Source of the DNA: a bacterium
Lineage (GTDB): Bacteria; Patescibacteriota; Minisyncoccia; Phycocordibacterales; CAIZIN01
DNA length: 64,000 nt
NCBI GenBank assembly: GCA_037131675.1
Contig: JBAXQO010000002.1
Span: 15,166 to 79,165, forward strand
Reading direction: 5' to 3'
Of the stretch, positions 10,533 through 58,822 are shown one piece after another (within the stretch, counting starts at the first letter, position 1; every line of letters begins with the position of its first letter). Under the pieces are notes generated by a model, which was not told the origin of the DNA, made no database searches, and saw nothing but the letters and a program-made list of their open reading frames with translations. Made by a program: the position numbers and the translations under genes.

Positions 10533-10637
10533 CGTTACTGAATTTAAACACATACTTTTAAAAATTACTTTAGTATTTTTGGTTAAGTTAAATTCCCGTA
10601 AGGGATGCTAAATTCTGGTAACAAAAAAGACTTAAAA

Positions 10638-10671
10638 TTAACCCTTCTCGTGCTAGCACGAGAAGGGTTAA
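10638..10671. terminator. 34-bp perfect palindrome, a probable bidirectional terminator hairpin
   Basis: ttaacccttctcgtgct | agcacgagaagggttaa forms a perfect 17-bp-arm palindrome, preceded by an A-run and followed by tctgttattctt. Confidence 0.45.
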
Positions 10672-10721
10672 TCTGTTATTCTTACAGACATTGAACTTTT
10701 GTCGGATTAAGTTTTTATCTA

Positions 10722-13615: not shown

Positions 13616-14200
13616 ATGGATACGTCCAACACATCTCAATCGTCAGTCAATGCAGCAGACTTCCTGGTGGAAGTTGAGAGAAAACTCAGGAAAAACTTCA
13701 AGGACTTGCCATTCAAGAGGCTCGGGGACTACCTTGGGGTTTTCGAAAAGATGCTCGATCGACGTTACCATTTTTCTTATGGTCGCACGATCGGTTCCTT
13801 GAATCAGTCTCTTGATGATATGGTATTTGTAATACCAATAATCGAGACACCCACCACCTATCGGAACGGTTCCTTGAAGAGGTTGGAGGTGGTGCAGTTG
13901 GTTCTTGAGAGGAGGCTTTGTGGGGGAGAACATGGTTGTTGGAACATACATAGGGCAAAATTTGTTCAGGTATATCCAGACACTATTCCTACAGAGTTTA
14001 ATTCCTCGAGTTCCTCAATTACTTCATGTCATAGTCCTCATGAATTTAAGGTGGAGCTTGTCAGGATTAAATTGCCCCCCAACTTTACCGAAATGGTAAA
14101 TTCTGCCATTTGTAAATGGATAGAGAATTCCATCGAAAAAAGGCGACAGACGAATCAGTCGCTCGGAAAGCTCAAAGGAGAGTTTTCAACAAAGAAATAA
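13616..14200 (+). CDS. hypothetical protein in a GC-elevated block
   Basis: 194-aa ORF with RBS aaaggaaacgagatt. GC is roughly 48%, with shadow ORFs on the opposite strand typical of higher-GC DNA. It has its own terminator. Confidence 0.5.
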   Translation: MDTSNTSQSSVNAADFLVEVERKLRKNFKDLPFKRLGDYLGVFEKMLDRRYHFSYGRTIGSLNQSLDDMVFVIPIIETPTTYRNGSLKRLEVVQLVLERRLCGGEHGCWNIHRAKFVQVYPDTIPTEFNSSSSSITSCHSPHEFKVELVRIKLPPNFTEMVNSAICKWIENSIEKRRQTNQSLGKLKGEFSTKK

Positions 14201-14285: not shown

Positions 14286-14359
14286 GGTGACCTTACGGGG
14301 AATCGAACCCCGATTTAAGCCTTGAGAAGGCTCCGTCCTAACCGTTAGACGATAAGGCC
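14286..14359 (-). tRNA. tRNA-Glu (anticodon CUC)
   Basis: Hand-folded cloverleaf: acceptor GGCCTTA/TAAGGTC, D-arm GTCT..GGAC, anticodon stem GAGCC/GGCTT with loop TTCTCAA, and T-arm CGGGG-TTCGATT-CCCCG. Discriminator A and CC are encoded. A TATAAT -10 lies about 11 bp upstream on the minus strand. Confidence 0.85.
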
Positions 14360-15813: not shown

Positions 15814-16035
15814 ATGTGGAATTTTATAATGAAACAAGCGATGAAATCGCAATTAAAAAATGTGCCAAAGGATCAGCAGGAAAAAATAATGGCTCTTATT
15901 GATAAAAATCCTGAATTTTTTACACAGCTTGCAGAAAAGATTAAGAAGAAAGTTGATAGTGGGAAACCTCAGATGGCGGCTGTGATGGAGGTGATGCAGG
16001 AAAATAAAGAAGAATTGCAGAAAATGATGAGGTAA
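15814..16035 (+). CDS. small Met/Lys-rich helical protein, hypothetical
   Basis: 73-aa ORF in operon position between the exonuclease and the flavodoxin-like gene. Confidence 0.4.
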   Translation: MWNFIMKQAMKSQLKNVPKDQQEKIMALIDKNPEFFTQLAEKIKKKVDSGKPQMAAVMEVMQENKEELQKMMR

Positions 16036-16054
16036 AAGAACGCTCAATATAGCC

Positions 16055-16131
16055 TTTCTGGAACACGAAAATTTTTTACTAAAAATTTTCTCTGTCCGCT
16101 GCCGTTGGTACAAGACCACTTCTTGTTTCCT
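16055..16131 (+). repeat. copy A of a ~76-nt repeated intergenic element
   Basis: The 44-nt core tttctggaacacgaaaattttttactaaaaattttctctgtccg matches the reverse complement of 33935-33979 at 42/44. Both copies end in a GTTTCCT-containing tail, and the core contains a 10-bp AT hairpin gaaaattttt/aaaaattttc. Confidence 0.6.
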
Positions 16132-16211
16132 AATTCGTTTCACTTATAAGTAAACAAAGTCGCGCAGCTACCAAGTTTCCATAAAGGGTATATTTCGCTA
16201 TAATGGTAGAT

Positions 16212-19363: not shown

Positions 19364-21625
19364 ATGAAAATAAAAGCTAAAATTATTGGAATGCATTGCG
19401 CTTCGTGTGCTTCAATTATTGAAAAGACACTTAGAAAAGATGACGCGGTCAAAAGTGTATCTGTGAATTTTGGTACTGAAAAGGCAAAGATTGATTTTGA
19501 TGATACACAGACCAATATTTCAAAATTGTCTGAATCTATCAAACCTCTCGGATATGAATTTGTAGAAGAAGACGATATGAACTATGTGGATCATGATATG
19601 TCCAATATTGGTAATGAAAATAAATCAGAAGTCGACGCTCTTAAGAAAAATGTAATTATTGGTCTCTCACTCGCTTTCGTAAGTGTTGTGATCATGGTGT
19701 GGGATATTCTTTCTGGATCTTCAGTGAGGATTGTGCCAGAAATGTCTCCTATTATAAAAACATTTTTTCATCATCTTTTGCCGATAATGGCCACATATAT
19801 GCTTTTTGTTATTGGTCTTCCGTACCTCAAAGGAGTGTGGCGATTCTTTCGTTTTGGTAAAGCAAACATGGATACTTTGATTGGTATTGGAACGGGAATT
19901 GCATTTTTATACAGCTTCATTGTCACAGCATTTGAAAATGTATTACGACCATATTTAAATGTTGATTTTACGTATTATGATGTAACGATTGTTGTTATTG
20001 CACTTATAACATTTGGAAAATATCTCGAAGCAAGTTCAAAAGTAAAAACTGGGGAAGCTATTAAAAAATTAATGCACTTACAAGCGAAGACAGCTATTGT
20101 TGTGCGTAATGGAAAAGAAATCGAATTACCCGTTGATCAAGTTGTAATTGGAGATATTCTTCGTGTAAAACCAGGAATGAAAATTTCAGTTGATGGAGAA
20201 ATTTCAGACGGCATTTCATCTATTGATGAGTCTATGATTACCGGCGAGTCTGTTCCTGTTGATAAAAAAACAGCAGACCTTGTGATTGGTGGAACAATCA
20301 ATAAACAGGGGAGTTTTTTGATGAAAGCAACACAAGTTGGAAAGGATACAATGCTCGCGAAAATCATTTCTATGGTAGAAGATGCTCAGGGTTCAAAAGC
20401 ACCAATTCAGGCGCTAGCTGATAAAATATCTGCAGTCTTTGTTCCTATTGTGTTGGTGATTTCAGTGGTGGCACTATCTGCTTGGCTTTTCTTTGGTATA
20501 ACAACTATTGGTTTTTCGAGTGCACTCTCATACGGGTTGACCGCATTTGTGGGGGTGCTTGTGATTGCTTGTCCTTGTGCTCTCGGACTCGCTACACCAA
20601 CAGCTATTATTGTAGGAGTAGGTAAAGGAGCGGAACGAGGTATTCTTGTTAAAGATGCAGAGAGTCTCCAGAAATTAAGTGAAGTAGATACTGTGGTGTT
20701 TGATAAAACTGGAACAATTACGAAAGGAGAGCCTTCAGTTACGAATATAATTTCTTTTAATGAGAAAATAAATGATCAAGAATTGTTGAAATATGCAGCA
20801 AGCCTCGAAGGCCTTTCAGAACATCCATTGGCACAAGCTATTTTGAATAAAGCAGAAGAAGAGAAAATCCAATTAGAAAAAGTTATAGATTTTGAAGCTC
20901 TCGAGGGTGTTGGGGTGGCTGGTTATCTTCTAGGTGAATTGTTTTCAGTAACGAAACCTAATGCAAATGAAAGAAATAATCAACATATAAATACTTTAGA
21001 GCAAGAAGGTAAGACCGTTGTGATTGTGAAGAAGAACGAAGTTATTCTTGGTATTGTTGCTCTTTCAGATACTATTAAAGATGGTGTAACTGAAACAATC
21101 AAAAGACTCCATGCGCAAAAAATTAAAACAGTTATGCTTACGGGCGATAATGCACGAGCGGCTGCTTTTATTGCTCGTGAAGCTGGTATCGATGAAGTAA
21201 TAGCCGAGGTGTTGCCACAGGACAAAGCAGCAAAAATAAAATCGTTGCAAGAACAGGGTGCAAAAGTTGCAATGGCTGGGGATGGGGTAAATGATGCTCC
21301 AGCTTTGGTACAAGCAGATGTGGGTATTGCAATGGCGACAGGTACCGATGTGGCGATTGAATCCGCGGGTATAACTCTTCTTCAGGGTGATATTCGGAAA
21401 CTTGCAGATGCGATTTCTCTTGCAAAAGCTACAATGCGTACGGTTAAACAAAATCTCTTCTGGGCATTTATTTACAATGTGGTAGGTATACCTTTAGCTG
21501 CTGGTGTTTTATATCCAGTGTGGGGGATTCTATTGAGTCCTGTATTTGCTGGTGTTGCTATGGCGGGAAGTAGTGTGTCGGTGGTCACCAATTCACTTCG
21601 GCTTAAGGTTAAAAAACTTAAATAA
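19364..21625 (+). CDS. copA: copper-translocating P1B-type ATPase
   Basis: N-terminal HMA GMHCASCAS; CPC motif in TM6 (ACPCALG); DKTGTIT phosphorylation site; GDGVNDAP. Confidence 0.9.
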   Translation: MKIKAKIIGMHCASCASIIEKTLRKDDAVKSVSVNFGTEKAKIDFDDTQTNISKLSESIKPLGYEFVEEDDMNYVDHDMSNIGNENKSEVDALKKNVIIGLSLAFVSVVIMVWDILSGSSVRIVPEMSPIIKTFFHHLLPIMATYMLFVIGLPYLKGVWRFFRFGKANMDTLIGIGTGIAFLYSFIVTAFENVLRPYLNVDFTYYDVTIVVIALITFGKYLEASSKVKTGEAIKKLMHLQAKTAIVVRNGKEIELPVDQVVIGDILRVKPGMKISVDGEISDGISSIDESMITGESVPVDKKTADLVIGGTINKQGSFLMKATQVGKDTMLAKIISMVEDAQGSKAPIQALADKISAVFVPIVLVISVVALSAWLFFGITTIGFSSALSYGLTAFVGVLVIACPCALGLATPTAIIVGVGKGAERGILVKDAESLQKLSEVDTVVFDKTGTITKGEPSVTNIISFNEKINDQELLKYAASLEGLSEHPLAQAILNKAEEEKIQLEKVIDFEALEGVGVAGYLLGELFSVTKPNANERNNQHINTLEQEGKTVVIVKKNEVILGIVALSDTIKDGVTETIKRLHAQKIKTVMLTGDNARAAAFIAREAGIDEVIAEVLPQDKAAKIKSLQEQGAKVAMAGDGVNDAPALVQADVGIAMATGTDVAIESAGITLLQGDIRKLADAISLAKATMRTVKQNLFWAFIYNVVGIPLAAGVLYPVWGILLSPVFAGVAMAGSSVSVVTNSLRLKVKKLK

Positions 21626-21627
21626 AT

Positions 21628-22650
21628 ATGGAAACTAAACAATATACGCTTCATGTTCGTGGAATGCATTGTAAATCATGTGCTGTTCTCATAGAGCACA
21701 CACTTTCTGAAGTTCCATTTATTAAAAAAGTCCACGCAGATTCAAATGCACACAGTGTAAGCATTGAAGCAGAAACAAATCTGACTTCAGAAGCTCTTGT
21801 TTTGGAACTCACACCTCTTATATCTAAAGATGGTTATATGCTTTCAATAGAAAAACAAAAACACAAAACAAAATGGATAGATTTTATGTATGCGGTACCA
21901 ATTGCGCTTGTACTCATTTTTGGGTTTGTTCTATTACAAAAACTTGGGTTAGTGAATTTGATCACTGCAGACAAAGTGAGTTATCCTGTTGCTTTTGGTA
22001 TTGGGCTTATCGCTTCGATATCTTCATGTCTTGCTGTTGTTGGTGGGTTGTTACTTTCAGTTTCTGCAAACTATGTAAAACAAGGTGGAAAAATAAAACC
22101 CCAGGCTCTATTTCATGTAGGCCGTCTCATTTCATTTTTTGTATTTGGTGGAATCATCGGCGCCATAGGTTCTGCATTTACTCTTAGTGCCACGGCAACT
22201 TTTATTCTTAGTATTCTGGTTGGTCTCGTGATGCTCGTGCTCGGTTTAAATTTACTTGAAGTTTTTCCTTGGGCAAAGAGATTGCAATTTCATATGCCTA
22301 AAAAATTGGCAGTAGGGGCACATACAATGAAAAACATGGAATTTGGTCTAGCACCATTTCTTGTGGGTGTAAGCACATTCTTCTTACCATGCGGTTTTAC
22401 CCAGTCAATGCAAATATATAGTCTTTCTACAGGCAGTTTCGTTACAGGTGCGCTTACAATGACCTTCTTTGCGCTCGGTACATTGCCGGTATTGTCGCTC
22501 ATAAGCTTTACATCTGTTCGTTTTGGTAAAGGGAAGTTTGCAAGTATTTTCTTCAAGTCTGCGGGGATTCTTGTTATTGTGTTTGGAATTTTTACTGTAC
22601 TTAATGGTTTAGTAGCAAAAGGAATTATTACACCTTTTTACAATTTTTAA
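21628..22650 (+). CDS. HMA-domain fused to a DsbD_2/TauE-like polytopic membrane domain
   Basis: N-terminal GMHCKSCAV heavy-metal-associated domain, then about 8 TM segments with paired Cys motifs (ISSCLAVVGG and FFLPCGFTQ) as in the DsbD_2 family. Confidence 0.55.
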   Translation: METKQYTLHVRGMHCKSCAVLIEHTLSEVPFIKKVHADSNAHSVSIEAETNLTSEALVLELTPLISKDGYMLSIEKQKHKTKWIDFMYAVPIALVLIFGFVLLQKLGLVNLITADKVSYPVAFGIGLIASISSCLAVVGGLLLSVSANYVKQGGKIKPQALFHVGRLISFFVFGGIIGAIGSAFTLSATATFILSILVGLVMLVLGLNLLEVFPWAKRLQFHMPKKLAVGAHTMKNMEFGLAPFLVGVSTFFLPCGFTQSMQIYSLSTGSFVTGALTMTFFALGTLPVLSLISFTSVRFGKGKFASIFFKSAGILVIVFGIFTVLNGLVAKGIITPFYNF

Positions 22651-32385: not shown

Positions 32386-33873
32386 TTATTCCGCAAAGAC
32401 TTCTTCCGCGGCTGCTTTTTTGTCTCCTTTGATCCAGAATGAAGCAAAAGCTCCAATGAGAACAAGTATCGAGGAGACAATAAACACAGTGCCATAGGCT
32501 GAAATCTGGGCTTTGAGGGATATTAGGGCAGTGGCTTGTTTGAATTGTTCCGCTGTGTGGAGGTGAAGAATGCTATTTTTTGAAATTGTAAGAATATTAC
32601 TTTCAATTGATTTTGTAAGGATTGTTCCGAAGATTGCAATACCGAATGCGCCGGCAATATTTCGCACAAGCGCTAGAACTCCAGATGCAATTCCAATTTC
32701 ATCATGAGGTACTGCAGATGCAATAATATTTGTTCGCTGTGCCATACCAAAGCCAAGGCCGAATGCCATTATTGATAATGGAATCATGATGTCTAAGGCT
32801 CCTGAGCGCGCATCGATAAAAGAGAATAAGTACAGGCCGATGGCTGCAACAAAGGTACTTGCGGCAATAACATAGCGAGGTTGAACTTTTCCAATGAGTC
32901 TGCCTCCGATAGGTGCTCCGAGCATCATTGCAAATGCCATCGGCATAAAGAGGTACCCACTTTGTGTTGCGTCATATCCTAGAAAAGTTTGAGCAAAAAT
33001 TGGGATTAGGAAGAGGCTTCCCATCATTCCCATGAAGACAATGAAGTTATTGAAAAGTGCGTTTACGAAAATTGGAATTTTGAAAAATTTAAAATCAACA
33101 ATTGGTTCAGGGTGGTTGATTTCGATTTTTGCAAATATGAAACTAAAAATAATTATTGAAACGTAGGACAAAATACTTTCATATGAAAGCCATCCCCAGT
33201 CCAAACCTTTGTCGAGCACAAGTACGAGCGATGCAAGCGCACCGCCGAGAGTGAGTGCGCCCCACCAGTCGAAGTTTAATGTTTTCTTTTCTGAAGTAGA
33301 TTCGTGTACATATTTATTTGCCATCAAAATACCGATAATTCCAATAGGTAAGTTGATGAGGAAAACAGAACGCCAACCGAAGTTGTCGATGAGTGGTCCG
33401 CCGAGAAGTGGTCCAAAAACTGTGGCTGCTGCAAATGAAGCAGACCAAATACCCAGAGCCTGGGCGCGCTCTTTACCTTCTGTAAATGTGACTGCAATAA
33501 TTGCCATGGCGGTAGGGTAGTCAGCAGATCCTGCGATAGCTTGGATAACCCTAAAAACGAGAAGGGAAGAAAGGTTCCACGATAGACCTGCAAGAATGGA
33601 GCCGACGATAAACATACTAAAGCCGATAATGTAAATTTTTTTTCTACCCAATGTGTCTCCAAGTTTTCCCCATACTGGAACAAAAACAGCATTCGCTAAA
33701 ATGTATGCAGTTGCAATCCAACCAGCAGCAGAAACAGTGATGCTGAAATCATCAATTATTTTTGGAAGGGCAAGGTTGACGATGGTTTGGTCGAGACGTC
33801 CAAGAAACGTGCCGACCATGACGGTCAAAAGCACGAGCCATTTTAGATTTTTATTTTCTTGGGTTTTTTCCAT
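32386..33873 (-). CDS. emrB: MFS drug-efflux transporter, DHA2 (EmrB/QacA, 14-TM) family
   Basis: 495 aa with about 14 TM helices and MFS motif A GKLGDTLGRKK. Confidence 0.8.
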   Translation of the reverse strand: MEKTQENKNLKWLVLLTVMVGTFLGRLDQTIVNLALPKIIDDFSITVSAAGWIATAYILANAVFVPVWGKLGDTLGRKKIYIIGFSMFIVGSILAGLSWNLSSLLVFRVIQAIAGSADYPTAMAIIAVTFTEGKERAQALGIWSASFAAATVFGPLLGGPLIDNFGWRSVFLINLPIGIIGILMANKYVHESTSEKKTLNFDWWGALTLGGALASLVLVLDKGLDWGWLSYESILSYVSIIIFSFIFAKIEINHPEPIVDFKFFKIPIFVNALFNNFIVFMGMMGSLFLIPIFAQTFLGYDATQSGYLFMPMAFAMMLGAPIGGRLIGKVQPRYVIAASTFVAAIGLYLFSFIDARSGALDIMIPLSIMAFGLGFGMAQRTNIIASAVPHDEIGIASGVLALVRNIAGAFGIAIFGTILTKSIESNILTISKNSILHLHTAEQFKQATALISLKAQISAYGTVFIVSSILVLIGAFASFWIKGDKKAAAEEVFAE

Positions 33874-33903
33874 TTTTTTATTTCAGTCTGACGAAAGTGT
33901 ATG

Positions 33904-33979
33904 TTTTCAGGAAACTTGGGAGGAGTGGCGACGACGGACAGAGAAAATTTTTAGCAAAAAATTTTCGTGTTCCTGAAAA
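33904..33979 (-). repeat. copy B of the ~76-nt repeated element, inside the efflux operon
   Basis: Reverse complement of 33935-33979 is 42/44 identical to 16055-16098. Flanked by a perfect 10-bp inverted repeat ttttcaggaa/ttcctgaaaa. Lies between the MFP stop (33996) and the emrB start (33873). Confidence 0.6.
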
Positions 33980-33995
33980 TATGCACTGAGGTATT

Positions 33996-34715
33996 TTAGT
34001 TTGTATAAATCCACAATTTTGCAGACATGCCATTTTGAAGTTCTGGATATTGGGTTGTGTTGAATCTTATTTTAACGTCGAATACACGAGTCTCTCTTTT
34101 ATCTGAAATGTTGAATACAATATCTCCTTGTCGAGCACTAGGACTAATTTCGTCTACGATACCTTCAAATTTTTTGCTACCAAACGCATCTACTGTAAAA
34201 GTCGCATGTTGTCCAATTTTAATTTCATTCAAACCTTTATCTTCGTCGATATGTCCGACAACACGGAGGTCATCGGGGTTTACTACTGTAACCACAGCCT
34301 CACCGCGATTGAAAAGTTTGCCAATTGAATCTTGTGTTTTTGTTACCACGCCCGCATCCTTTGTTTTGATGAGTTCGTTATCTACTCTAGCAACTACGGA
34401 ATTTGCATTAATGTAGTCACCTTGTTTTACAAAAACCTCCTGCAGAATTCCTGCATTTTGTGGCGCAAGGTCTGATGTTGGAGCAGAAATCTCGGCTTTG
34501 TCCGTGTATACTCTGCCAGAAGAATATTTCCAATAGGCGAATCCGCTCGCGCCTGCAATAATTAAGAATGAGATTAGTCCGAGGGCTATGTGAGAATTAC
34601 GGGAAAGTTTTTTAATGTCTTTCTCTTCATCTTTAATTTTTTTTAGAATTTCTTCTTCCTCGCGAAGAATTTTCTTTTCCTCATCGAGCATTTGTTTTTG
34701 TGTATCGTTTGTCAT
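33996..34715 (-). CDS. HlyD-family membrane fusion / periplasmic adaptor protein (EmrA-like, short)
   Basis: N-terminal charged coiled-coil, one TM, and a biotinyl/lipoyl-like beta domain. Adjacent to emrB. Confidence 0.6.
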   Translation of the reverse strand: MTNDTQKQMLDEEKKILREEEEILKKIKDEEKDIKKLSRNSHIALGLISFLIIAGASGFAYWKYSSGRVYTDKAEISAPTSDLAPQNAGILQEVFVKQGDYINANSVVARVDNELIKTKDAGVVTKTQDSIGKLFNRGEAVVTVVNPDDLRVVGHIDEDKGLNEIKIGQHATFTVDAFGSKKFEGIVDEISPSARQGDIVFNISDKRETRVFDVKIRFNTTQYPELQNGMSAKLWIYTN

Positions 34716-34718
34716 GTT

Positions 34719-36179
34719 TTAGTTGTTACCAAAGCTTGCTATTAAATCTCCTTCATTAAGTCCAGAAAGAACTTCCGTTTCTGTGTTTGTGTTCATGATA
34801 CCTGTGGTAATCTTTTTCTCGGAATATTCTTTTCCATTTTGAACAAGAACAAAAGTATCATTACCTCGACGGATAATTGCACGAGAAGGTACGACTAGTG
34901 CCTGATTTGATGTACGAGTGGAAACTTCTGCGTTTGCAGTCATACCAGAATAGATTTTACTATCTGACTTATCGAATAGAAGTGTTGCTTTGTATGTACC
35001 AACTCCGTTTGTCACCGTTTCTGATGGGTCAATGGCAGATACATGAGCGTTGAATATGTTGCCCGTGCCGTACGCGTCGAGAGTGATTGCCGCTTTATTG
35101 TCGACTGCGATTTTAGCAAGATCAACTTCTGGAATTTGTATCTCAACTTTAAATGCATCTTTTGTCATGATGCCGAAAGCTGGTGTTCCTGCTGCAAAAA
35201 ATTCTCCAACTTTTGGTTCGGCTTTTGTTACTATTCCTGAAAACGGAGCTCGGATAATTGTGTGATTAATTTGGCTTTGGATAGCATCAACAGCTGACTG
35301 AGCCTTTGATACTCGAGTTTCTTGAACGGGGCCACTTGCAGAAGTTCCTCGAAGGGACTCCTCTGCACTTGTGATATTTGAGAGTGTTGTGTTTATGTTT
35401 GCTCTGGCGGAGGCCACATCACTTTTATATTTATCAATTGTGCTTTGAGGAAGTGTATTGTTTGGTTCGAAGTTGTTTACTGCGCGTGATACATCATCAA
35501 GGAAATTTTTGACGGTCGTCAAATATGTTCTTGCTTGTTCCGCATCGGCATTTGAGATTGAATCAGATGAAAGATTGGTATTCATCGTGTGCCACTTAGT
35601 TAGAGTTTCTTCAATTACAATTCTTTCTCCGTTTATTTTTTCTTTCAAATCATAGTCATTAAAAGCAAAAAGAATTTTTGGGTTCATTGTGTCGGGGTCT
35701 GTAAAAAATTGGTCCACTTTATTGCGTACAGAATCATCTGCTGTGGTAAGACCGCCTTGAACAGTGTCGTAAAGTTTATGTTGTGCTGTCACGAGTTCTG
35801 TTGAAGTATTGCCTGAGCTACCTTGTAGTTGACTTAATTTTTCTTGTTCGGCTTTGAGATCGGCCTGTGCACCTTCAAGACTCGCATATAGTTCGTCTGA
35901 AGAAAGCGCCCCGAGAGTATCGCCGGCGTTTACTGAGTCACCAATTTTAACATTTACACGAGCAACTGAGCCGCTTTTATCAAATGCAAGTGATACGTTA
36001 TCGAGTGCTTCGACTTTTCCTGTCGCTGTAATTTTTTCAGTAATGTCTTTTCTTTCAACTTTCACAGTGTTGTAGTTTTGTGTACGAGAAGAAATGAGGA
36101 ATGTTGAACCAGCAATTATTCCTATTCCAATAAAGATAGATCCTCCAATTATAAATGTTTTGTTATGCAGTAAGTTCAT
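34719..36179 (-). CDS. efflux periplasmic adaptor / membrane fusion protein with a long coiled-coil hairpin
   Basis: N-terminal TM, lipoyl-like segment VERKDITEKITATGKVEA, long alpha-helical region, and C-terminal beta domains. Confidence 0.55.
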   Translation of the reverse strand: MNLLHNKTFIIGGSIFIGIGIIAGSTFLISSRTQNYNTVKVERKDITEKITATGKVEALDNVSLAFDKSGSVARVNVKIGDSVNAGDTLGALSSDELYASLEGAQADLKAEQEKLSQLQGSSGNTSTELVTAQHKLYDTVQGGLTTADDSVRNKVDQFFTDPDTMNPKILFAFNDYDLKEKINGERIVIEETLTKWHTMNTNLSSDSISNADAEQARTYLTTVKNFLDDVSRAVNNFEPNNTLPQSTIDKYKSDVASARANINTTLSNITSAEESLRGTSASGPVQETRVSKAQSAVDAIQSQINHTIIRAPFSGIVTKAEPKVGEFFAAGTPAFGIMTKDAFKVEIQIPEVDLAKIAVDNKAAITLDAYGTGNIFNAHVSAIDPSETVTNGVGTYKATLLFDKSDSKIYSGMTANAEVSTRTSNQALVVPSRAIIRRGNDTFVLVQNGKEYSEKKITTGIMNTNTETEVLSGLNEGDLIASFGNN

Positions 36180-36603
36180 CTTGTTTCTTGTTAGTTATTA
36201 TTGTTTCTAAAATTCCCTCGAAATCTTTTTTTTGTTTTTGCGTGAAAGCGTCAAAAAGTTTTTCTATCTTTACGGAAGCTTGTTTAAGGCATTTTTCCAA
36301 ATTCTTTTTTCCTAGCGACGTTATCTTTAGTGATACTATTCTGCGGTCTGTCTTGCTCGGGGTTCTCTTGAGTTTTCCATTTTTCTCGAGCTTGTTAATG
36401 ATTTCCGTGGTGGATGGGGAAGAGATGTGTAAGTATTCTGCCAAAGTTTTCATCGATATGTTTTCATTCTTCGAGACTATTCCTAGAGTTTTTAATTCTA
36501 AAATCGAAGACTCTGGATTTTTTTCGATTATTTTCTCTCGTATTATTCCTGCTACAGCGAGGATGTTGAGCATGAGTTTGCTTGTCGGATCATTTTTGTC
36601 CAT
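36163..36603 (-). CDS. MarR-family transcriptional regulator
   Basis: Winged HTH with TDRRIVSLKITSLGKK. First gene of the efflux operon; overlaps the downstream adaptor gene by 17 nt. Confidence 0.8.
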   Translation of the reverse strand: MDKNDPTSKLMLNILAVAGIIREKIIEKNPESSILELKTLGIVSKNENISMKTLAEYLHISSPSTTEIINKLEKNGKLKRTPSKTDRRIVSLKITSLGKKNLEKCLKQASVKIEKLFDAFTQKQKKDFEGILETIITNKKQDELTA

Positions 36604-40330: not shown

Positions 40331-40349
40331 TAGGATGTGAGCTTAAAAA

Positions 40350-40395
40350 CACAGAACCTGCCCTGATACTTACCAGGGCAGGTTCTGTGTTTTTC
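40350..40395 (+). terminator. strong rho-independent terminator
   Basis: 17-bp stem acacagaacctgccctg / cagggcaggttctgtgt followed by ttttt. Confidence 0.8.
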
Positions 40396-52156: not shown

Positions 52157-54283
52157 ATGTCAGTTTTCAAACTTAAAAGCGAATACGAGCCAGCGGGCGA
52201 CCAGCCGAAAGCTATTTCGGATCTTGTTTCCAGTATCAAAAAAGGCAGCAGAGACCAAACTCTTTTGGGTGTGACTGGTTCCGGAAAGACATTTACAATG
52301 GCAAATGTGATTTCTAAAATAGGGAAGCCGACACTTGTAATTGCTCACAATAAAACTCTCGCTGCCCAGCTCGCCCAAGAGTATAAAGAATTTTTTCCTG
52401 AAAACGCTGTACACTATTTCGTATCCTACTATGACTACTATCAGCCAGAAGCTTATATGCCAGTCTCTGATACATATATCGAAAAAGAAGCGATGATCAA
52501 TGAGGAAATTGAACGACTTCGCCACGCTTCCACACAAGCGCTTCTCACTCGGAAAGATGTCATTATTGTTGCATCAGTTTCTTGTATTTACGGTCTTGGC
52601 TCTCCAGAGGAGTATGAAAAAGTGAATTTGAAAATTTCTGTAGGTGACAAATTTGGCCGAATGGATTTGCTTGAAAAACTTATTGATATTCATTTCGAGC
52701 GCACGAATGCGGACTTGAAGTCTGGACAACTTCGTGCTGTGGGAAACACAGTTGAAGTGATGCCTGTGTCTGAGCAATACATAATCCGTTTCAGTTTTGA
52801 TGGAAATGAAGTCGCTTCAATTTCAAAAATCGACGCTGTGACGCGCAGAATTATCTCTGAAGAAAAATCTACTTTTATTTTCCCTGCAAAACATTTCATT
52901 ACAGACGAAGCTCAGCAAAAGAAAGCATTTGAAAGTATTAAAAAAGAGCTTGACCACAGATTGAAAGAACTTGAAAAAGAAGGGAAAGTTTTAGAAGTTG
53001 AAAGACTAAAACGACGCACAACATACGACCTTGCACTCATTCGCGAAGTTGGCTACTGCAACGGTATTGAAAACTACTCACGACATTTTTCTGGGAAAAA
53101 AGCTGGCGAGGCGCCAGATACACTACTTTCATATTTTTCACGAAAAGCTGATGGTTCGGCAGATTTTCTCACTATTATTGATGAGTCACATGTAACAGTT
53201 CCGCAAATTGGTGGAATGTTTGCTGGTGATCAGTCTCGAAAACAAACTCTTGTTGAATATGGTTTTCGCTTACCTTCAGCAAAAGATAACCGTCCACTCA
53301 AATTTGATGAATTTGAAAAAAGAGTCGGGCAAGTTATATACACATCTGCAACTCCTGGAAAATATGAACTTGAAAAATCTGGAAAACCAGTGGAGATGGT
53401 AATCCGCCCCACTGGACTTCTAGACCCGATTGTTGAAGTGAAACCAATAGTTGAGAAAGGAAAATACAAAGGGCAAGTTTTTGATTTTATTGATGAAGCT
53501 GCTGCAGTGGTAAAAAAAGGTGACCGAGTGATAGCCACGACACTTACAAAAAAAATGGCAGAAGATTTAAGTGAATATCTTTCGGAAAAAGGACTTGCAT
53601 CAAAATATCTGCATAGTGATATTAAAACTATTGAACGAATCGAGCTTCTCTCGGCTTTTCGTCGAGGTGAATTTGATTGTCTTGTTGGGGTAAACTTGCT
53701 TCGAGAAGGTTTAGACCTGCCAGAAGTTTCTTTGATTGGAATTTTAGATGCCGACAAAGAAGGTTTTCTCCGTTCTGAAACATCTCTCATTCAGACTATT
53801 GGTCGTGCTGCTCGAAATGCGGCAGGGCGAGTGGTTTTGTACGCGGATAATATGACAGGCTCCATGACTCGAGCGATTTCTGAAACGCAACGTCGTAGAA
53901 CACTTCAAGAAAAATACAATACAGAACACGGCATTACTCCAAAAACGATTATCAAAAAAATCCACGATATTACAAGTCAACTTCAAAATGATCACAAGAA
54001 AGCTGTGTCAGCACTGCTCTCCATAGATGAAATTCTTTTACAAAAAGATCCGAAGAAACTTTTAGATGAAAAAGAAGAGCAAATGGGCCAGGCTGTGCAA
54101 GATCTAGATTTTGAAACAGCTGCAATTTTGCGTGATGAGATAATTGAAATTAAAGAAAAGATAGGAAAGAAAATGGGCGATATGACACAGCTCGACAGAA
54201 AGCTCGCAGCAAAATTTGATAAAGAATTTTTGAATGAGTTTCCAAAAGAAAAAAAGAAAGGAACACGAAAGAAAAAGAATTAA
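52157..54283 (+). CDS. uvrB: excinuclease ABC subunit B
   Basis: Helicase motif I GVTGSGKTFT, beta-hairpin region, and C-terminal UVR domain (DFETAAILRDEI). Confidence 0.95.
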   Translation: MSVFKLKSEYEPAGDQPKAISDLVSSIKKGSRDQTLLGVTGSGKTFTMANVISKIGKPTLVIAHNKTLAAQLAQEYKEFFPENAVHYFVSYYDYYQPEAYMPVSDTYIEKEAMINEEIERLRHASTQALLTRKDVIIVASVSCIYGLGSPEEYEKVNLKISVGDKFGRMDLLEKLIDIHFERTNADLKSGQLRAVGNTVEVMPVSEQYIIRFSFDGNEVASISKIDAVTRRIISEEKSTFIFPAKHFITDEAQQKKAFESIKKELDHRLKELEKEGKVLEVERLKRRTTYDLALIREVGYCNGIENYSRHFSGKKAGEAPDTLLSYFSRKADGSADFLTIIDESHVTVPQIGGMFAGDQSRKQTLVEYGFRLPSAKDNRPLKFDEFEKRVGQVIYTSATPGKYELEKSGKPVEMVIRPTGLLDPIVEVKPIVEKGKYKGQVFDFIDEAAAVVKKGDRVIATTLTKKMAEDLSEYLSEKGLASKYLHSDIKTIERIELLSAFRRGEFDCLVGVNLLREGLDLPEVSLIGILDADKEGFLRSETSLIQTIGRAARNAAGRVVLYADNMTGSMTRAISETQRRRTLQEKYNTEHGITPKTIIKKIHDITSQLQNDHKKAVSALLSIDEILLQKDPKKLLDEKEEQMGQAVQDLDFETAAILRDEIIEIKEKIGKKMGDMTQLDRKLAAKFDKEFLNEFPKEKKKGTRKKKN

Positions 54284-54284
54284 A

Positions 54285-54318
54285 AAACCGCTCACAAAAT
54301 CGAGCGGTTTTTCTTTTC
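54285..54318 (+). terminator. rho-independent terminator after uvrB
   Basis: aaccgctc-acaaaat-gagcggtt followed by tttcttttc. Confidence 0.65.
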
Positions 54319-54325
54319 AAACTTT

Positions 54326-54682
54326 TTATCTTTGAACTGTGGAAACTAAATTAGAGAACAGAGAGATGATGTTCGCCACGTTATCCAATACCTGGTTAAG
54401 CGCCACTTGTTCTTGTTGTGCTTGTGCTTGCCCAAGAAGTGTTTGGTCTCGCAAAATCTGATTTTGTTTATTTGCTATTGCGATACTCAACTGATTGAGA
54501 GTCTGTAGCAGTTGTGGAGCTATGGCTTTAATATCAGCAATTGTAATCATTTGACTCGTTGTGCCCGATTGAGTTGTTACAGTTTGGGTTGTTGTGGATG
54601 TTTGATATGTTTGGGCATGTATTGGACTCATTGGGGCGATTAAAAACAAAGCTAAAATAACAAAAGATAATGTCTTTTTCAT
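54326..54682 (-). CDS. secreted Gln/Thr-rich coiled protein, hypothetical
   Basis: Signal peptide MKKTLSFVILALFLIAPMSPIHA, then a T/Q-rich low-complexity and helical region. Confidence 0.45.
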   Translation of the reverse strand: MKKTLSFVILALFLIAPMSPIHAQTYQTSTTTQTVTTQSGTTSQMITIADIKAIAPQLLQTLNQLSIAIANKQNQILRDQTLLGQAQAQQEQVALNQVLDNVANIISLFSNLVSTVQR

Positions 54683-54808
54683 AATTATGTAGAATTATAG
54701 TTATTAAAGAACTCTTTTTACGAAAGAGTTGTGTTTGTAAAAATAGACAAGTCGGCCTGGTGACTTTCCTCTCCATTCTACCTCTTTTAAAAATAAAGCA
54801 AAGTAAAA

Positions 54809-54830
54809 CCCCAAGCCGAATTGCTTGGGG
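54809..54830 (-). terminator. terminator hairpin for the minus-strand gene at 54869-55504
   Basis: Perfect 8-bp stem ccccaagc-cgaatt-gcttgggg with a U-tract on the minus strand. Confidence 0.55.
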
Positions 54831-54868
54831 TAGGAGTTGAACGCATATCTCCTGAAAGCGGGTTTTTA

Positions 54869-55504
54869 TTAACTTGTGAGGACGGCAGATGGGTCGTAGA
54901 ATGTCCACTCACTGTCGAGCCAATTGCAACGCCAATTCCACACCTCAGCAGAACAAATCCAGCATGCTGATAGAATGAAACGATTGTTACGTATCTTAAA
55001 GATCGTGCCGTCGAAGTAGATATGGGTTACTTTGCCTCTCGTCTTCTTTTTCCAACTTTCTGGAATTAGGTTTTTGTTCTTCCAAAGAGTCTGGAAAACT
55101 TTGGCGTCGAGGCGGATATTATTTGCTTCTTTGAGACGCTTCAGTTTTTCTTCGCCACCCACAACGTTCTCTCCGTCCTTGAGCATTGTCTCGAGGTGGA
55201 CATTAGTGAGGTCAATTTCGGTGAGGGCGAGACTGCGTTCGTCCTCCTCTTCGATGGTCCAGCCGTCGCCAAGGAATTTCAGGTCAAAAGGTGTAGTTCG
55301 GTCAATTGTGATGATTTTGGATTCTCCGACAATTACTCGACCGCCGTTCTTGAGGAAAGCAGTGAACTGAGCACCGGCTTCCTTTGGATGCTGAAGCGCC
55401 CACTCAACTGTTGAGTCGGGAACTTTGCTGAGGTCGACGTTGTTGTTCAGAACTCCCATAAGCCGTAAAGCTCTGTTGGGGTCTGTGATTGGCTTACTAT
55501 TCAT
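54869..55504 (-). CDS. hypothetical protein in a GC-elevated block
   Basis: 211-aa ORF at about 46% GC with plus-strand shadow ORFs and a Trp/Cys-rich C-terminus (CWICSAEVWNWRCNW). Confidence 0.45.
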   Translation of the reverse strand: MNSKPITDPNRALRLMGVLNNNVDLSKVPDSTVEWALQHPKEAGAQFTAFLKNGGRVIVGESKIITIDRTTPFDLKFLGDGWTIEEEDERSLALTEIDLTNVHLETMLKDGENVVGGEEKLKRLKEANNIRLDAKVFQTLWKNKNLIPESWKKKTRGKVTHIYFDGTIFKIRNNRFILSACWICSAEVWNWRCNWLDSEWTFYDPSAVLTS

Positions 55505-55580
55505 GAGCTTACCTTTCTTTTTAAGTTACGCTGACCATTTCTTTCACGGATTGCGAAAGCTATAGCTGACGTTCTGTGGT

Positions 55581-55630
55581 ATTTACCGCATAACACAAAG
55601 GTCATAAAACCTCTCTGTTATGCGGTAAAT
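55581..55630. promoter_or_regulatory. perfect 15-bp inverted repeat with a 20-bp spacer upstream of the uvrA operon
   Basis: atttaccgcataaca (55581-95) and tgttatgcggtaaat (55616-30) are exact reverse complements. No U-tract on either side. Confidence 0.4.
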
Positions 55631-55765
55631 CTTGCAAGTTGGAATGTAAAAGAACTTGTTTCATATTTTTACTATTATTAAGCGCTCATGTCAAGTATCA
55701 GAAACGGCGGATTTAGGATAGTATTTGACTACATATACCCCTAGTGAGCAAGAGAGGGGGATTTG

Positions 55766-55963
55766 ATGCGTATGAAAAAAGAAAACCCCAAAGGCGAAAT
55801 AAGTGTTGAAAAACTTAGTCATTTCAGGTGCTGTCTTTGCGGTAAGTGGTGGAGCATAGGAGATGCTCTAAAACGAAAAGAATGGCATTGCCCACGGTGC
55901 GGAGAGAAGCAAGAGTTCTCAACTGAAAGTAAACCAAAATTTAAATATGAAACCAGAAAATAA
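55766..55963 (+). CDS. small zinc-ribbon protein
   Basis: RBS AGAGAGGGGG 6 nt upstream. Pattern CCLCGKWW...HCPRCGEK (CxxC-x17-CxxC). Overlaps the uvrA start by 17 nt. Confidence 0.5.
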
Positions 55964-58538: not shown

Positions 58539-58576
58539 TGTAAGAAAAAAGTCGGAAGATTATTCCGACTTTGGAG

Positions 58577-58783
58577 CTATTGCAAACCAACCTCTTCTTG
58601 TTCTTGGTTGGGGATTTCTTGGGAGATCGGTACGAAGAACTCGAAAGGTCTTTCAAAGCTCTTGTGACACTTGTCACACTCACATTCATTTATTCCTGGC
58701 TCAATACGACGAGTATAGGTGCCAGTAGAACTGCATTTCGGGCACTTCATCCCAAACGGGACTATACAAGGTATTACCGTCAT
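58577..58783 (-). CDS. small C4 zinc-ribbon protein, hypothetical
   Basis: MKCPKCSSTG...CECDKCHKSF pattern; good RBS AGGAAAGA 10 nt upstream on the minus strand. Fills the uvrA-uvrC intergenic gap. Confidence 0.45.
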   Translation of the reverse strand: MTVIPCIVPFGMKCPKCSSTGTYTRRIEPGINECECDKCHKSFERPFEFFVPISQEIPNQEQEEVGLQ

Positions 58784-58822
58784 GGTTTTTGTCTTTCCTG
58801 CGTGCTAATCTATAATAAAAAA

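Follow-up and report, generated by a model that had tools for sequence, protein, structure and literature searches.

A ~100-nt palindromic element of CPR/Patescibacteria genomes, probably a non-autonomous mobile DNA of the Rickettsia-palindromic-element/MITE kind

ERIC/IRU, Correia/NEMIS, BOX, RUP, and SPRITE are small non-autonomous repeats that form long imperfect hairpins when transcribed. These classical MITEs are mostly intergenic and co-transcribed with their neighbours, are occasionally found within genes, and can carry promoter-like or terminator-like features; ERIC accepts internal insertions at fixed points, and the textbook MITE is defined by terminal inverted repeats that are conserved, by a target-site duplication of constant length, and by a full-length IS to which it is related. 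Palindrome-associated elements derived from IS200/IS605, as well as REP/REPIN sequences, are mobilised by HUH Y1 transposases that act on folded single-stranded DNA, and the end motifs of IS608 are TTAC/TCAA. In the attC sites of integrons, structure outweighs sequence: they fold as single-stranded DNA around a variable central part, and their R''/R' core sites are found in cassette arrays near an integrase.

The Rickettsia palindromic element (RPE; Ogata et al. 2000) is described in PMC10969869 as a palindromic, hairpin-forming, multi-copy repeat of 100-150 bp in a reduced, host-dependent genome. RPE copies are placed there both between genes and in frame within unrelated housekeeping genes, to which they add a peptide segment, and the element has neither its own transposase nor a known mobilising enzyme (PMC10969869). 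The 64-kb stretch of bacterial DNA analysed here, referred to as a whole as the window, contains two copies of an element, copy A (16041-16199, plus strand) and copy B (33891-33992, minus strand), which probably belong to a family of ~100-nt non-autonomous palindromic mobile DNA in CPR/Patescibacteria genomes. The best reading of its closest kind is the Rickettsia-palindromic-element/MITE one, which is not reported for CPR in the literature searched. The CPR element shares with RPE a length of ~100 nt, the palindromic structure, residence in the small, reduced genome of a host-dependent bacterium, multiple copies in intergenic and in-frame intragenic positions, and the lack of a transposase of its own. 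It differs from RPE in having intragenic copies in both orientations and two frames, in strongly preferring the first few bases behind stop codons, and in conserving its interior (a three-way-junction core) while its arms vary. Moreover, the RPE host belongs to the Alphaproteobacteria and the CPR element resides in a different phylum; because the hosts are in unrelated phyla, analogy is more likely than homology.

The earlier note had pointed to a duplicated core, and the duplication is borne out: GGAACACGAAAATTTTTT[A/G]CTAAAAATTTTCTCTGTCCG occurs at 16060-16098 (plus strand) and 33935-33973 (minus strand) with one mismatch, and a 44-nt stretch agrees at 42 of 44 positions. It was equally right in placing both copies in short co-directional gaps, just past a stop codon (they start ~10 nt after it) and in the orientation of those genes, in describing a 10-bp A/T hairpin (GAAAATTTTT/AAAAATTTTC) in both and a perfect 10-bp inverted repeat (TTTTCAGGAA/TTCCTGAAAA) that closes copy B, and in regarding the ORFs at both copies, which share the peptide RTEKIFSKKFSCS, as artefactual. 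Its element length of 76 nt and its end of copy A at 16131 were wrong, as the two extents given above indicate. Copy B represents the whole canonical 102-nt element; it matches covariance model R1 with 108 bits over model positions 1-102, has a fold z-score of -4.25, and lies between the stop codon of an HlyD-like gene (33996-33998) and the start of an MFS gene (33873), with its P2 hairpin, formed by GAAAATTTTT, a TGCT loop, and AAAAATTTTC, at 33943-33966 on the minus strand.

Copy A is composed of a 102-nt canonical body and a 57-nt secondary insertion, matches R1 with 82.7 bits over model positions 1-102, and has a fold z-score of -4.97. Upstream of it is the stop codon of a 73-aa ORF (16035) and downstream the start of a Flavodoxin_2 gene (16212); copy A separates this small ORF from the quinone-reductase-like gene. 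On the plus strand, the 5' arm of the stem P1, AATATAGCCTTTCTGGAAC (16046-16064), pairs with 16176-16194 in the MFE fold, and the closing stem CCTTTCTGGAA/TTCCATAAAGG contains one mismatch. The P2 hairpin (GAAAATTTTT, a TACT loop, and AAAAATTTTC; 16067-16090, plus strand) is followed by the conserved junction strand CTCTGTCCG (16090-16098, plus strand), whose invariance in the 18-sequence alignment A3 is not independent, as the genome-scan pattern imposed this motif and L097-L099 were re-located by a regular expression that required CTCTGTCC; copies found only by the model carry substitutions in this strand (CTCCGTCCG in L100 and CTCTGTAC in both L104 copies). The 3' part of copy A (16169-16199, plus strand) comprises the junction strand TACCAAG, the P1 3' arm TTTCCATAAAGGGTATATT, and the 3' flanking motif TCGCT, and ACCAAGTTTCCAT at 16170-16182 is the counterpart of CCCAAGTTTCCTG in copy B. 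The secondary insertion, of net 57 nt, occupies the P3 loop at ~16106-16163 (plus strand), and the covariance-model alignment places a 58-nt insert between CCGU and GCAGC. The orthologous copy of the relative L104 (9887-9988) lacks the insertion and has a 4-nt CGTC loop there; the GTTTCCT (16125-16131) that had been described as the tail of copy A lies inside this insertion. Among 105 fetched loci, none contains an exact match to the 55 nt in the middle of the insert (16106-16160). As copy A shows, the P3 loop accepts further insertions, in a manner that resembles the internal insertions of ERIC.

In the common fold, the long stem P1 closes a three-way junction that also holds the A/T hairpin P2 and the small, expandable hairpin P3. 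The near-invariant junction core of ~60 nt consists of CACGAAAA, P2, TTTTCTCTGTCCG, P3, and CTCCCAAG, while the 15-20 bp of P1 vary freely in sequence provided that pairing is kept, and a tetranucleotide of the TCRR type borders the body at either end. Within any one copy the arms form inverted repeats, their sequence differs among subfamilies, and the conserved part is internal; unlike textbook MITEs, the CPR element has no terminal inverted repeats common to all copies and keeps only the pairing of its arms. Across 27 copies, both-sided changes occur in 29 of 34 pairs (18 of 19 in P1 and 6 of 10 in P2, which is paired in 98.8% of cases across copies), and 88.3% of cells are paired, against 69.0% after shuffling, where 0 of 500 shuffles reach 88.3%, and 40-60% with slid partners. 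The pair types of P1 and P2 amount to 662 Watson-Crick, 5 G-T, and 19 A-C; as G-U is nearly absent and the changes are almost all of the Watson-Crick kind, they do not show selection of the structure at the RNA level. Near-exclusive Watson-Crick pairing is expected for DNA hairpins and, like the motifs at the ends, would fit single-strand transposition of the IS200/IS605 type, and the conservation of structure over terminal sequence is a feature that the CPR element shares with IS200/IS605-derived and REP elements.

A DNA pattern built on the core finds 15 copies in 10 species-representative CPR genomes, and with the covariance model the ~102-nt family amounts to 27 copies in all, divergent ones among them, in ~16 CPR assemblies, the sampling being a handful of genomes. 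The further copies and the covariation that the earlier note had proposed to look for were thus both found. A chance or merely local duplication without wider meaning might be suggested by the window, which holds just two family copies (A and B), and can be dismissed: the 39-nt core occurs twice in the 64-kb window with one mismatch and finds no match in 100 shuffles, and against a local event stand the 27 copies in ~16 assemblies and their compensatory changes. Several copies are located at contig ends, as repeats break assemblies in this way. In its corrected form, the family DNA pattern is GAAAAN{12,20}TTTTCN{15,45}CCTYCCARGTTTCC. Several sets of matches were discarded: among those of the genome scan, L032, L040, L046, and L048 correspond to an Acidobacteriota repeat, and L041, L042, and L047 are due to chance; the 44 metagenome matches (L050-L093) are noise, the pattern gap between TTTTC and CCTYCC having been set to 24-54 nt when the real gap is 19 nt; the 27 matches of a loose pattern (GGAACACGN{18,30}CTCTGTCCG) to viral contigs all arose by chance in G+C-rich phage DNA, as did by chance the 3 matches of the corrected pattern to viral contigs. 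A BLAST search of phage and plasmid collections with copy B gave no match. A protein search with concatenated element peptides retrieved 4 proteins and is not a census, as matches of ~25 residues are barely significant among 5.8 billion sequences. At the gathering threshold, Rfam 15 detects only a tRNA in the whole window, and at E values up to 10 copies A and B receive only chance snoRNA-like or miRNA-like matches.

About 14 of the ~18 independent intergenic loci carry the element directly behind a stop codon and co-oriented with the upstream gene; the co-oriented copies begin 0-36 nt past the stop, with one at 89 nt, and in an 8-kb stretch of L039 four consecutive genes have a copy at the end of each. 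This regular gene-end placement could also be compatible with a host-level function at gene 3' ends. In particular, a host-beneficial RNA module (terminating transcription, protecting 3' ends from exonucleases, or serving as an RNase processing site) that spread because it is useful would agree with the proximity and co-orientation to the stop, with the L039 series, with the strongly conserved core and covarying structure, and with the canonical terminator hairpin that L103 has at the place of copy A; moreover, copies A and B have opposite orientations under a constant GC skew, so that orientation follows transcription and not replication. We consider such a module distinctly unlikely, because copies are antisense to flanking genes in L100/L101, in L036, and, less securely, in L049, because those inside genes have both orientations, and because 5 G-T against 19 A-C pairs on the sense strand run contrary to selection on the folding of a sense RNA. 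Similarly, a scan for the intrinsic terminator consensus (GC-rich stem plus T run) finds none at copies A or B, whose A/T-rich stems are followed only by YTTCG, so that the terminator reading proposed earlier receives nothing from it, and ordinary terminator-like hairpins exist elsewhere in the genome (e.g., 40345-40394). Lastly, copy B sits inside an operon, where it would be carried within the MarR-HlyD-HlyD-MFS-DAGK transcript, and in relatives the two genes that it separates are 2-23 nt apart.

The position of copies A and B directly upstream of start codons invites a different explanation, namely a cis-regulatory RNA (a riboswitch-like leader) or a DNA operator (e.g., that of MarR) controlling the MFS efflux pump and the quinone-reductase-like gene. 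A common stress regulon would be plausible for the DHA2/MFS pump and the Flavodoxin_2 NAD(P)H quinone-reductase-like protein, a MarR gene is the first of the copy B operon, P2 is a perfect 10-bp palindrome, and the conserved tail of copy A provides a -35-like TTTCCA, spaced by 17 nt from a following TATAAT, which in turn is 7 nt away from the ATG. The promoter-like match, however, is no better than that obtained with shuffled sequence, P2 covaries, so that its half-sites are not fixed, and no Rfam family matches at E values up to 10. The same MFS and Flavodoxin_2 genes lack the element in close relatives, and the downstream genes at other loci are unrelated (pyruvate kinase, SMC, RecA, an HMA/DsbD_2 protein, and others), as are the flanking genes in general (HlyD, RNase III-like, NDK-like, RecA, FtsK, pyruvate kinase, Cu-ATPase, and others). 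A riboswitch for efflux or quinone reduction and a MarR operator were both rejected on the unrelated neighbours and the covarying P2 stems; the cis-regulatory option of the earlier note is hardly credible, owing to these unrelated flanking genes.

Five copies lie in frame within protein-coding genes, those for a UvrD-like helicase, a PfkB kinase, TruB, PheT, and a T4SS-pilin-like protein, two in antisense and three in sense orientation and in two different frames. In the UvrD-like helicase, the copy corresponds to residues 706-739, between the UvrD_C and PDDEXK_1 domains; in TruB, it encodes 34 residues in place of 4 residues of T. maritima TruB; and in PheT, it sits in the C-terminal region. 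For TruB and PfkB, the alignment with solved homologs covers both sides of the extra segment. The frame is open across every intragenic copy, including L030 and L034, which were found by the DNA pattern and thus not pre-selected for openness, and the element peptides, such as ENFLLKIFSVRRR and KLGRRDGAGQRK, are predicted within TruB, PheT, PfkB, or the helicase. An apparent direct repeat in the peptide around the copy of the pilin-like protein was rejected as a by-product of similar A/T-rich arms and not a duplication. The interruption of conserved genes (TruB, PheT, PfkB, helicase), together with the compact, conserved three-way-junction core and a long closing stem that joins both flanks, is what a very small intron-like element might look like, in which case self-splicing or an endonuclease would excise the intragenic copies from the mRNA. 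Known self-splicing introns are far longer than ~100 nt, and the length of the element falls well under theirs. Moreover, the reading frame is kept in all intragenic copies, both orientations occur in genes, an arrangement incompatible with a strand-specific ribozyme or splice signal, and no ribozyme family of Rfam matches, all of which makes removal from the mRNA highly improbable. Placement in frame in unrelated protein genes as well as between genes is a trait that the element shares with selfish DNA of the RPE kind.

Direct comparison of relatives argues for mobility. Three sites are polymorphic (occupied or empty) between genomes that share 88-96% identity in the flanking proteins. The HlyD/MFS site is occupied in the window and empty in L102 (MFS 92% identical), where the allele TAAaaatCCTCAGgctgaaat corresponds to TAAaataCCTCAG[98 nt]actgaaat in the window; the gap between HlyD and MFS measures 122 nt in the window, 23 nt in L102, and 2 nt in a third relative. 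In the three-way alignment of the window, L100, and L102, the segment missing from the L102 empty allele spans 98 nt (33888-33985, minus strand) and is bounded on both sides by TCAG (33986-33989 and 33888-33891). The idea that the insertion length is a multiple of three by design was rejected, as the copy B insertion has 98 nt. At the same site, L100/L101 carry, in reverse orientation, an element that belongs to a different subfamily. The site between the small ORF and the Flavodoxin_2 gene is occupied in the window and in L104, and no element is found there in L103 (96% identical) or L105; a canonical terminator hairpin is present at the same place in the empty site of L103. The Cu-ATPase/HMA-DsbD_2 site is occupied in L104 and L105, and the window has just 2 nt from stop to ATG. 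These polymorphic sites, the further copies in many CPR genomes, and the in-frame copies in unrelated genes support the MITE-like option of the earlier note; small size (102 nt, less than ~500 bp), non-coding nature, dispersed copies, and the three polymorphic sites are all traits of MITEs. Long hairpins and a mostly intergenic, occasionally intragenic placement are likewise shared with the classical MITEs.

Conversely, a target duplication would be of 4 nt at best and no related IS is present within the window, in which the element may differ from textbook MITEs. Exact 4-nt flanking repeats are seen at copy B (TCAG, already in the empty allele), L029 (TCGA), and L104b (TCAA), the flanks of subfamily 2 are constant, with TCGG on one side and TCAA on the other, and the flank table reveals no clear constant target-site duplication across copies. 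As the motifs are partly subfamily-specific (TCGG...TCAA), the TCRR flanks may represent a target plus an element end instead of a duplication. A short motif at the left end with a similar one at the right (TCRR...TCRR) and no obvious duplication recall IS608. An outer, locus-specific inverted repeat of at least 9 bp surrounds 9 of the 22 independent copies, as compared with 3% of controls at a threshold of at least 7 bp.

The element itself encodes no transposase, and no transposase, integrase, or reverse transcriptase is present among the 49 window ORFs of at least 150 aa. The element would rely for its movement on a trans-acting enzyme whose gene lies elsewhere. This enzyme would recognise the core in its folded form, probably on single-stranded DNA, since the stems retain Watson-Crick pairs and have almost no G-T. 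Insertion would take place in A/T-rich spacers, adjacent to TCRR and frequently within a small hairpin loop that already existed behind a gene, and the surviving copies would be the harmless ones, between genes or in tolerant protein linkers, where they would be translated. Effects on expression (a 3' stem-loop, partial termination, or a borrowed -35 box) would be secondary. Unlike IS200/IS605-derived and REP elements, the CPR element has no TnpA or RAYT gene in the window and consists of one long hairpin with a three-way junction and not of two subterminal hairpins or a REP doublet. A replication-strand bias in the window was rejected, as GC skew is positive throughout and copies A and B are on opposite strands; this constant skew is also at odds with a strict lagging-strand bias. 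With integron attC sites, the CPR element shares the imperfect palindrome, a similar length, and a co-oriented position right behind the stop; unlike attC, its copies are isolated behind housekeeping genes, form no cassette arrays, and are also found inside genes, and its central part is the conserved one. Inspection of the flank table gave no evident R''/R' boxes (RYYYAAC/GTTRRRY), and the window contains no integrase.

A bolder proposal, regarded here as rather unlikely, is that the family represents a new structure-guided mobile DNA, in which the conserved three-way-junction core and not the termini would be recognised by a CPR enzyme so far not associated with transposition, and which would be aimed at single-stranded hairpin loops with TCRR just behind genes, regularly rebuilding gene 3' ends with new C-termini, 3' stem-loops, and -35 boxes. 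If true, this rebuilding would affect genomes that are regarded as streamlined and poor in mobile DNA.

CPR/Patescibacteria genomes, of ~1 Mb, are tightly packed and usually called streamlined. In practical terms, an element of this kind breaks metagenomic assemblies and generates spurious ORFs, and it could serve as a strain-level marker; covariance model R1 is directly usable for a census. If the mobile-element reading holds, a selfish palindrome would generate variation in genomes and proteins that annotation pipelines miss, splitting formerly adjacent or coupled genes, as with HlyD and MFS here, and adding segments of ~30 residues to proteins such as TruB, PheRS, and a helicase. It would also constitute, besides Rickettsia, a second independent case in which reduced, host-dependent bacteria tolerate translated selfish DNA.

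The palindromic hairpin element is present twice in the window, as the earlier note had proposed: a 39-nt core, GGAACACGAAAATTTTTT[A/G]CTAAAAATTTTCTCTGTCCG, lies at 16060-16098 (+) and 33935-33973 (-) with a single differing base, located within the hairpin loop, and none of 100 dinucleotide-preserving shuffles yields such a match; a chance duplication is excluded. By folding, copy A spans 16041-16199 (+; z-score -4.97) and copy B spans 33891-33992 (-; z-score -4.25), each closed by a long stem whose 5' strand is (C)CTTTCNGGAA in both copies and whose 3' strand is TTCCTGAAAA in copy B and a second GTTTCC, at 16176-16190, in copy A. The extent first assigned to copy A was wrong, and the GTTTCCT at 16131 that had been taken for its tail falls inside a 57-nt insertion of the internal loop, which is absent from the copy A orthologue of a related metagenome contig (L104, 9887-9988), a clean 102 nt. 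The coordinates of the flanking genes place both copies in short co-directional intergenic gaps, again as proposed: copy A between a 73-aa ORF (stop 16035) and a Flavodoxin_2 / NAD(P)H-quinone-reductase-like gene (ATG 16212), and copy B between a 239-aa HlyD-like gene and a DHA2-type MFS gene, within a MarR-HlyD-HlyD-MFS-DAGK operon. This compact efflux operon (32386-36603, -) codes for MarR, two HlyD-like proteins of 486 and 239 aa, the DHA2 MFS, and a diacylglycerol-kinase-like protein, and it is kept across very many CPR contigs with an MFS identity of 70-92% (3062 proteins at E <=1e-40). The small ORF upstream of copy A (15814-16035, +; 73 aa, lysine/glutamate-rich, no Pfam match) has also been called as a gene (64-73 aa) in the relatives L103, L104, and L105, and is probably a real gene. 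Other features of the window include the UvrB, UvrA, UvrC cluster at 52157-60037 and, near the window end, a gene coding for a Fic_N-containing member of the Fic/DOC family (62227-63372, +).

A pattern derived from the core, used in a single scan of a species-representative genome collection, gives 22 matches, of which seven are due to chance and 15 are clear relatives in 10 CPR metagenome-assembled genomes (MAGs), with at most four copies per genome. These genomes are labelled Saccharibacteria, Taylorbacteria, or plain "bacterium", the labels being those of the deposited MAGs, and homologs of the window proteins are named Parcubacteria, Paceibacterota, or Patescibacteria. The chance matches L032, L040, and L048 (three contigs of CAVROP01) and L046 (CAWEFC01) lie in a near-identical G+C-rich repeat of >180 nt (…GGAACACGAAAGGCAGCGGCATTTTGACGTCCGTCCCCCCTCTGTCC…), which is multi-copy in several contigs of two Acidobacteriota MAGs and unrelated to the CPR element. 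The covariance model R1, built from 18 copies, recovers both window copies (108 and 83 bits) and adds copies, some of them divergent, in the loci fetched from other genomes; the further copies that the earlier note had proposed to count therefore exist, 15 by core pattern and 27 in all. Elsewhere in the window, R1 finds only short opposite-strand matches to the P2 hairpins of copies A and B and generic hairpins. Two long perfect hairpins between genes (40345-40394 and 10630-10679, both strands; e.g. AAAAACACAGAACCTGCCCTGGTAA.TATCAGGGCAGGTTCTGTGTTTTT), with runs of A and T on their flanks, look like ordinary bidirectional intrinsic terminators and match R1 only because of the long stem of the model. 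No Rfam family matches the element; a tRNA gene (RF00005, 61 bits) is located at 14288-14359 (-), adjoining a 194-aa ORF with no Pfam match (13616-14200).

The element is bounded on each side by a TCRR-type tetranucleotide, followed inwards by the closing stem P1 (15-20 bp) and by a three-way junction with strands CACG, CTCTGTCCG, and C(T)CCCAAG, from which emerge P2, a 10-bp A/T hairpin with a TGCT, TACT, or TGTT loop, and P3, a short hairpin that takes the form of a full one in a divergent subfamily and accommodates insertions (15 nt in L035, 57 nt in window copy A, 92 nt in L049). Copies of a divergent subfamily in L039 (1214-1335, -, and 6826-6946, +) read CACGATA, hairpin 1, TTCTCTAC, hairpin 2, CCGTAAG, and their hairpin 2 (GAAATTTTTTACTAAAAATTTC) is nearly identical to the main-family P2 but shifted to the P3 position, a likeness that suggests a modular rearrangement of hairpins within the family; at 2555-2756, L039 also holds a copy broken by ~97 N (masked in the stored genome) right after the core CTCT. 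Over the 27 copies, 88.3% of the cells are paired, versus 69.0% after shuffling (none of 500 shuffles as high) and 40-60% with slid partners, and 29 of the 34 pairs change on both sides, in an alignment that was fitted to R1 and with which independent MAFFT alignments agree; the covariation that the earlier note had suggested looking for is thus found. The seemingly invariant GGAAC/GTTTCC becomes CGTC/GACG and AGAGC/GCTCT in protein-derived copies and is therefore stem sequence, not core. The invariance of the core is itself partly imposed by the search pattern, and copies recovered by the model only carry core substitutions (CTCCGTCCG in L100 and CTCTGTAC in L104). Taken together, P1 and P2 contain 662 Watson-Crick, 5 G-T, and 19 A-C pairs in a sample that is small and in part defined by the search pattern. 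In an RNA whose folding on the transcribed strand is under selection, G-U rather than A-C pairs would be expected; pairing that is almost exclusively Watson-Crick is consistent with a constraint acting on the DNA, or on both strands.

Comparison of the genomic surroundings of close homologs of both window genes reveals occupied and empty sites. At the HlyD|MFS junction of the relative L102 (MFS 92% identical), the genes are 23 nt apart with no element (TAAaaatCCTCAGgctgaaataaaaaATG), and the window reads TAAaataCCTCAG[98 nt]actgaaataaaaaaATG, the additional 98 nt finishing with a second TCAG. In a third relative, the gap is of 2 nt, as judged from gene coordinates only, and in L100/L101 (88% identical), it is occupied by an oppositely oriented copy that belongs to a different subfamily (80 bits), which is an independent insertion. 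At the small ORF|Flavodoxin_2 junction, the element is found in the window and L104 (92% identical), its place in L103 (96% identical) is taken by an ordinary terminator hairpin, aaaaATACGCACtcagaGTGCGTATttttattt (2244-2297), with TCAG in the loop, and L105 (88% identical) has an unrelated spacer sequence; the presence of the element in L104 and not in L103, the closest relative at this locus, suggests either that L103 lost or replaced it or that strains recombined. Lastly, the copper-ATPase|HMA-DsbD_2 junction is occupied in L104 (15504-15605) and L105 (16902-17004) and is an empty site inside the window (21620-21632), where 2 nt separate the copper-ATPase stop (21625) from the HMA/DsbD_2 ATG (21628). 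In a single clade, four or five genomes thus disagree on the occupancy of three sites, as a mobile, or at least insertion/deletion-prone, element would behave and a fixed functional site would not.

In every copy, a TC[G/A]N tetranucleotide is present on both sides of the palindromic body, and the left one is already there in the only precisely resolved empty site (CCTCAG, L102). The two flanking motifs are identical in window copy B (TCAG), L029 (TCGA), and L104b, one of the two L104 copies (TCAA); in one subfamily, the left motif is always TCGG and the right one TCAA. The right-hand motif may be either a 4-nt duplication of the target or a target-like end of the element itself, the latter being the arrangement of IS200/IS605 elements. 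Just outside the motifs, nine of 22 independent copies have a locus-specific perfect inverted repeat of 9-14 bp, which is absent from both window copies; only 3% of mismatched-flank controls reach 7 bp. With the element taken out, the L104b site reads GAAATATTT-aaaTCAA-AAATATTTC, which is a small hairpin whose loop contains the motif. Judging from these two cases, L104b and the empty copy A site of L103, small-hairpin loops behind genes may be a favoured target, which would also account for the position behind stop codons.

Insertion also reaches coding sequences. Two copies found by the DNA pattern alone sit antisense in long ORFs, stop-free and with the frame kept, as residues 706-739 of a 1009-aa UvrD-like helicase, between UvrD_C (334-676) and PDDEXK_1 (757-1002), and as residues 213-246 of a 360-aa PfkB kinase. 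A protein-database search with the four open frames of the element adds three copies, all sense and in the frame ...EHENFLLKIFSVRRR...: residues 95-129 of TruB, the C-terminal part of PheT immediately N-terminal to the FDX-ACB domain, and a site near the N-terminus of a T4SS-pilin-like protein whose annotated start may be too far upstream. TruB aligns with its solved homolog on either side of the segment, which counts 34 residues versus 4 in T. maritima TruB, and the PfkB protein has 20-31 additional residues in the same region relative to solved homologs. The tolerance of insertions in genes is explained by the core being open in four of its six frames, which also explains the artefactual ORFs noted earlier. 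Tiny introns are an unlikely account of these segments, since every in-gene copy is open in frame and the copies occur in both orientations.

The genes flanking the copies are unrelated (HlyD, MFS, RNase III-like, NDK-like, pyruvate kinase, SMC, RecA, FtsK, copper ATPase, and others); this context excludes a gene-specific regulator. A riboswitch or an operator is essentially excluded, and the cis-regulatory reading of the earlier note is not supported. About 14 of about 18 independent intergenic loci begin 0-36 nt (in one case 89 nt) past the stop of a co-oriented gene, and within one 8-kb stretch of CAYZNH01, the consecutive FtsK, 117-aa, RecA, and 271-aa genes each have a copy at their end. 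Conversely, L100/L101 and L036 are antisense to their neighbours, as apparently is L049, whose relation to L045 is uncertain, and L033 and L045 lack a nearby upstream gene in their own orientation. Copies A and B lie on opposite strands of a window whose GC skew is positive over its whole length; therefore, their orientation follows the local genes, not replication. Several copies (L043, L033, the second L038 copy) are at contig ends, as expected of assembly-breaking repeats. The regular position and orientation behind genes makes a host-beneficial 3'-end module, acting as terminator or stabiliser, the serious rival, against which, as the primary explanation, stand the antisense and in-gene copies, the excess of A-C over G-U on the sense strand, the empty alleles in relatives, and the lack of a terminator signature at the window copies, which also leaves the terminator option of the earlier note without support. 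Such a module and a mobile element are compatible with each other because mobile terminator-like repeats are known, e.g. SPRITE (PMC10969869).

In its behaviour, the CPR element is most like the Rickettsia palindromic element, described in PMC10969869 (citing Ogata et al. 2000) as ~150-bp palindromic repeats, of which nearly half occupy in-frame positions in unrelated genes of a reduced genome. It also shares features with ERIC/Correia-type hairpin MITEs and with IS200/IS605- or REP-type elements acting as folded single strands. The MITE-like reading put forward earlier is supported by the mobile behaviour seen in occupied and empty sites. The CPR element lacks the conserved terminal inverted repeats of a textbook MITE; a target duplication of fixed length is not demonstrated, and no parent IS is known. 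For these reasons, it is filed only under the broad kind of non-autonomous palindromic repeat elements, as a new member outside any named family. A full-text literature search returned no paper tying MITEs or palindromic/intergenic repeats to Patescibacteria, CPR, Parcubacteria, or Saccharibacteria, and BLAST against phage and plasmid collections found nothing.

The CPR element is most probably a selfish mobile palindromic element, any particular mechanism being much less certain. Nested insertions and independent insertions at one site are observed, the element has no coding capacity, and no transposase, integrase, or reverse transcriptase is found among the 49 window ORFs of at least 150 aa. 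It would be moved in trans by an enzyme recognising the folded core, probably as single-stranded DNA, would insert beside TCRR in A/T-rich spacers or hairpin loops, and its copies would persist where harmless. The conserved tail of the element in copy A provides a -35-like TTTCCA, separated by 17 nt from a downstream TATAAT whose end is 7 nt from the ATG at 16212 (16176-16204, +; 10/12), a match no better or more frequent than in shuffled sequence; a predicted promoter derived in part from copy A, from which the Flavodoxin_2 mRNA would start with little or no leader, is only a possibility. Copy B, for its part, has widened the gap between two operon genes, which measures 2-23 nt in relatives.
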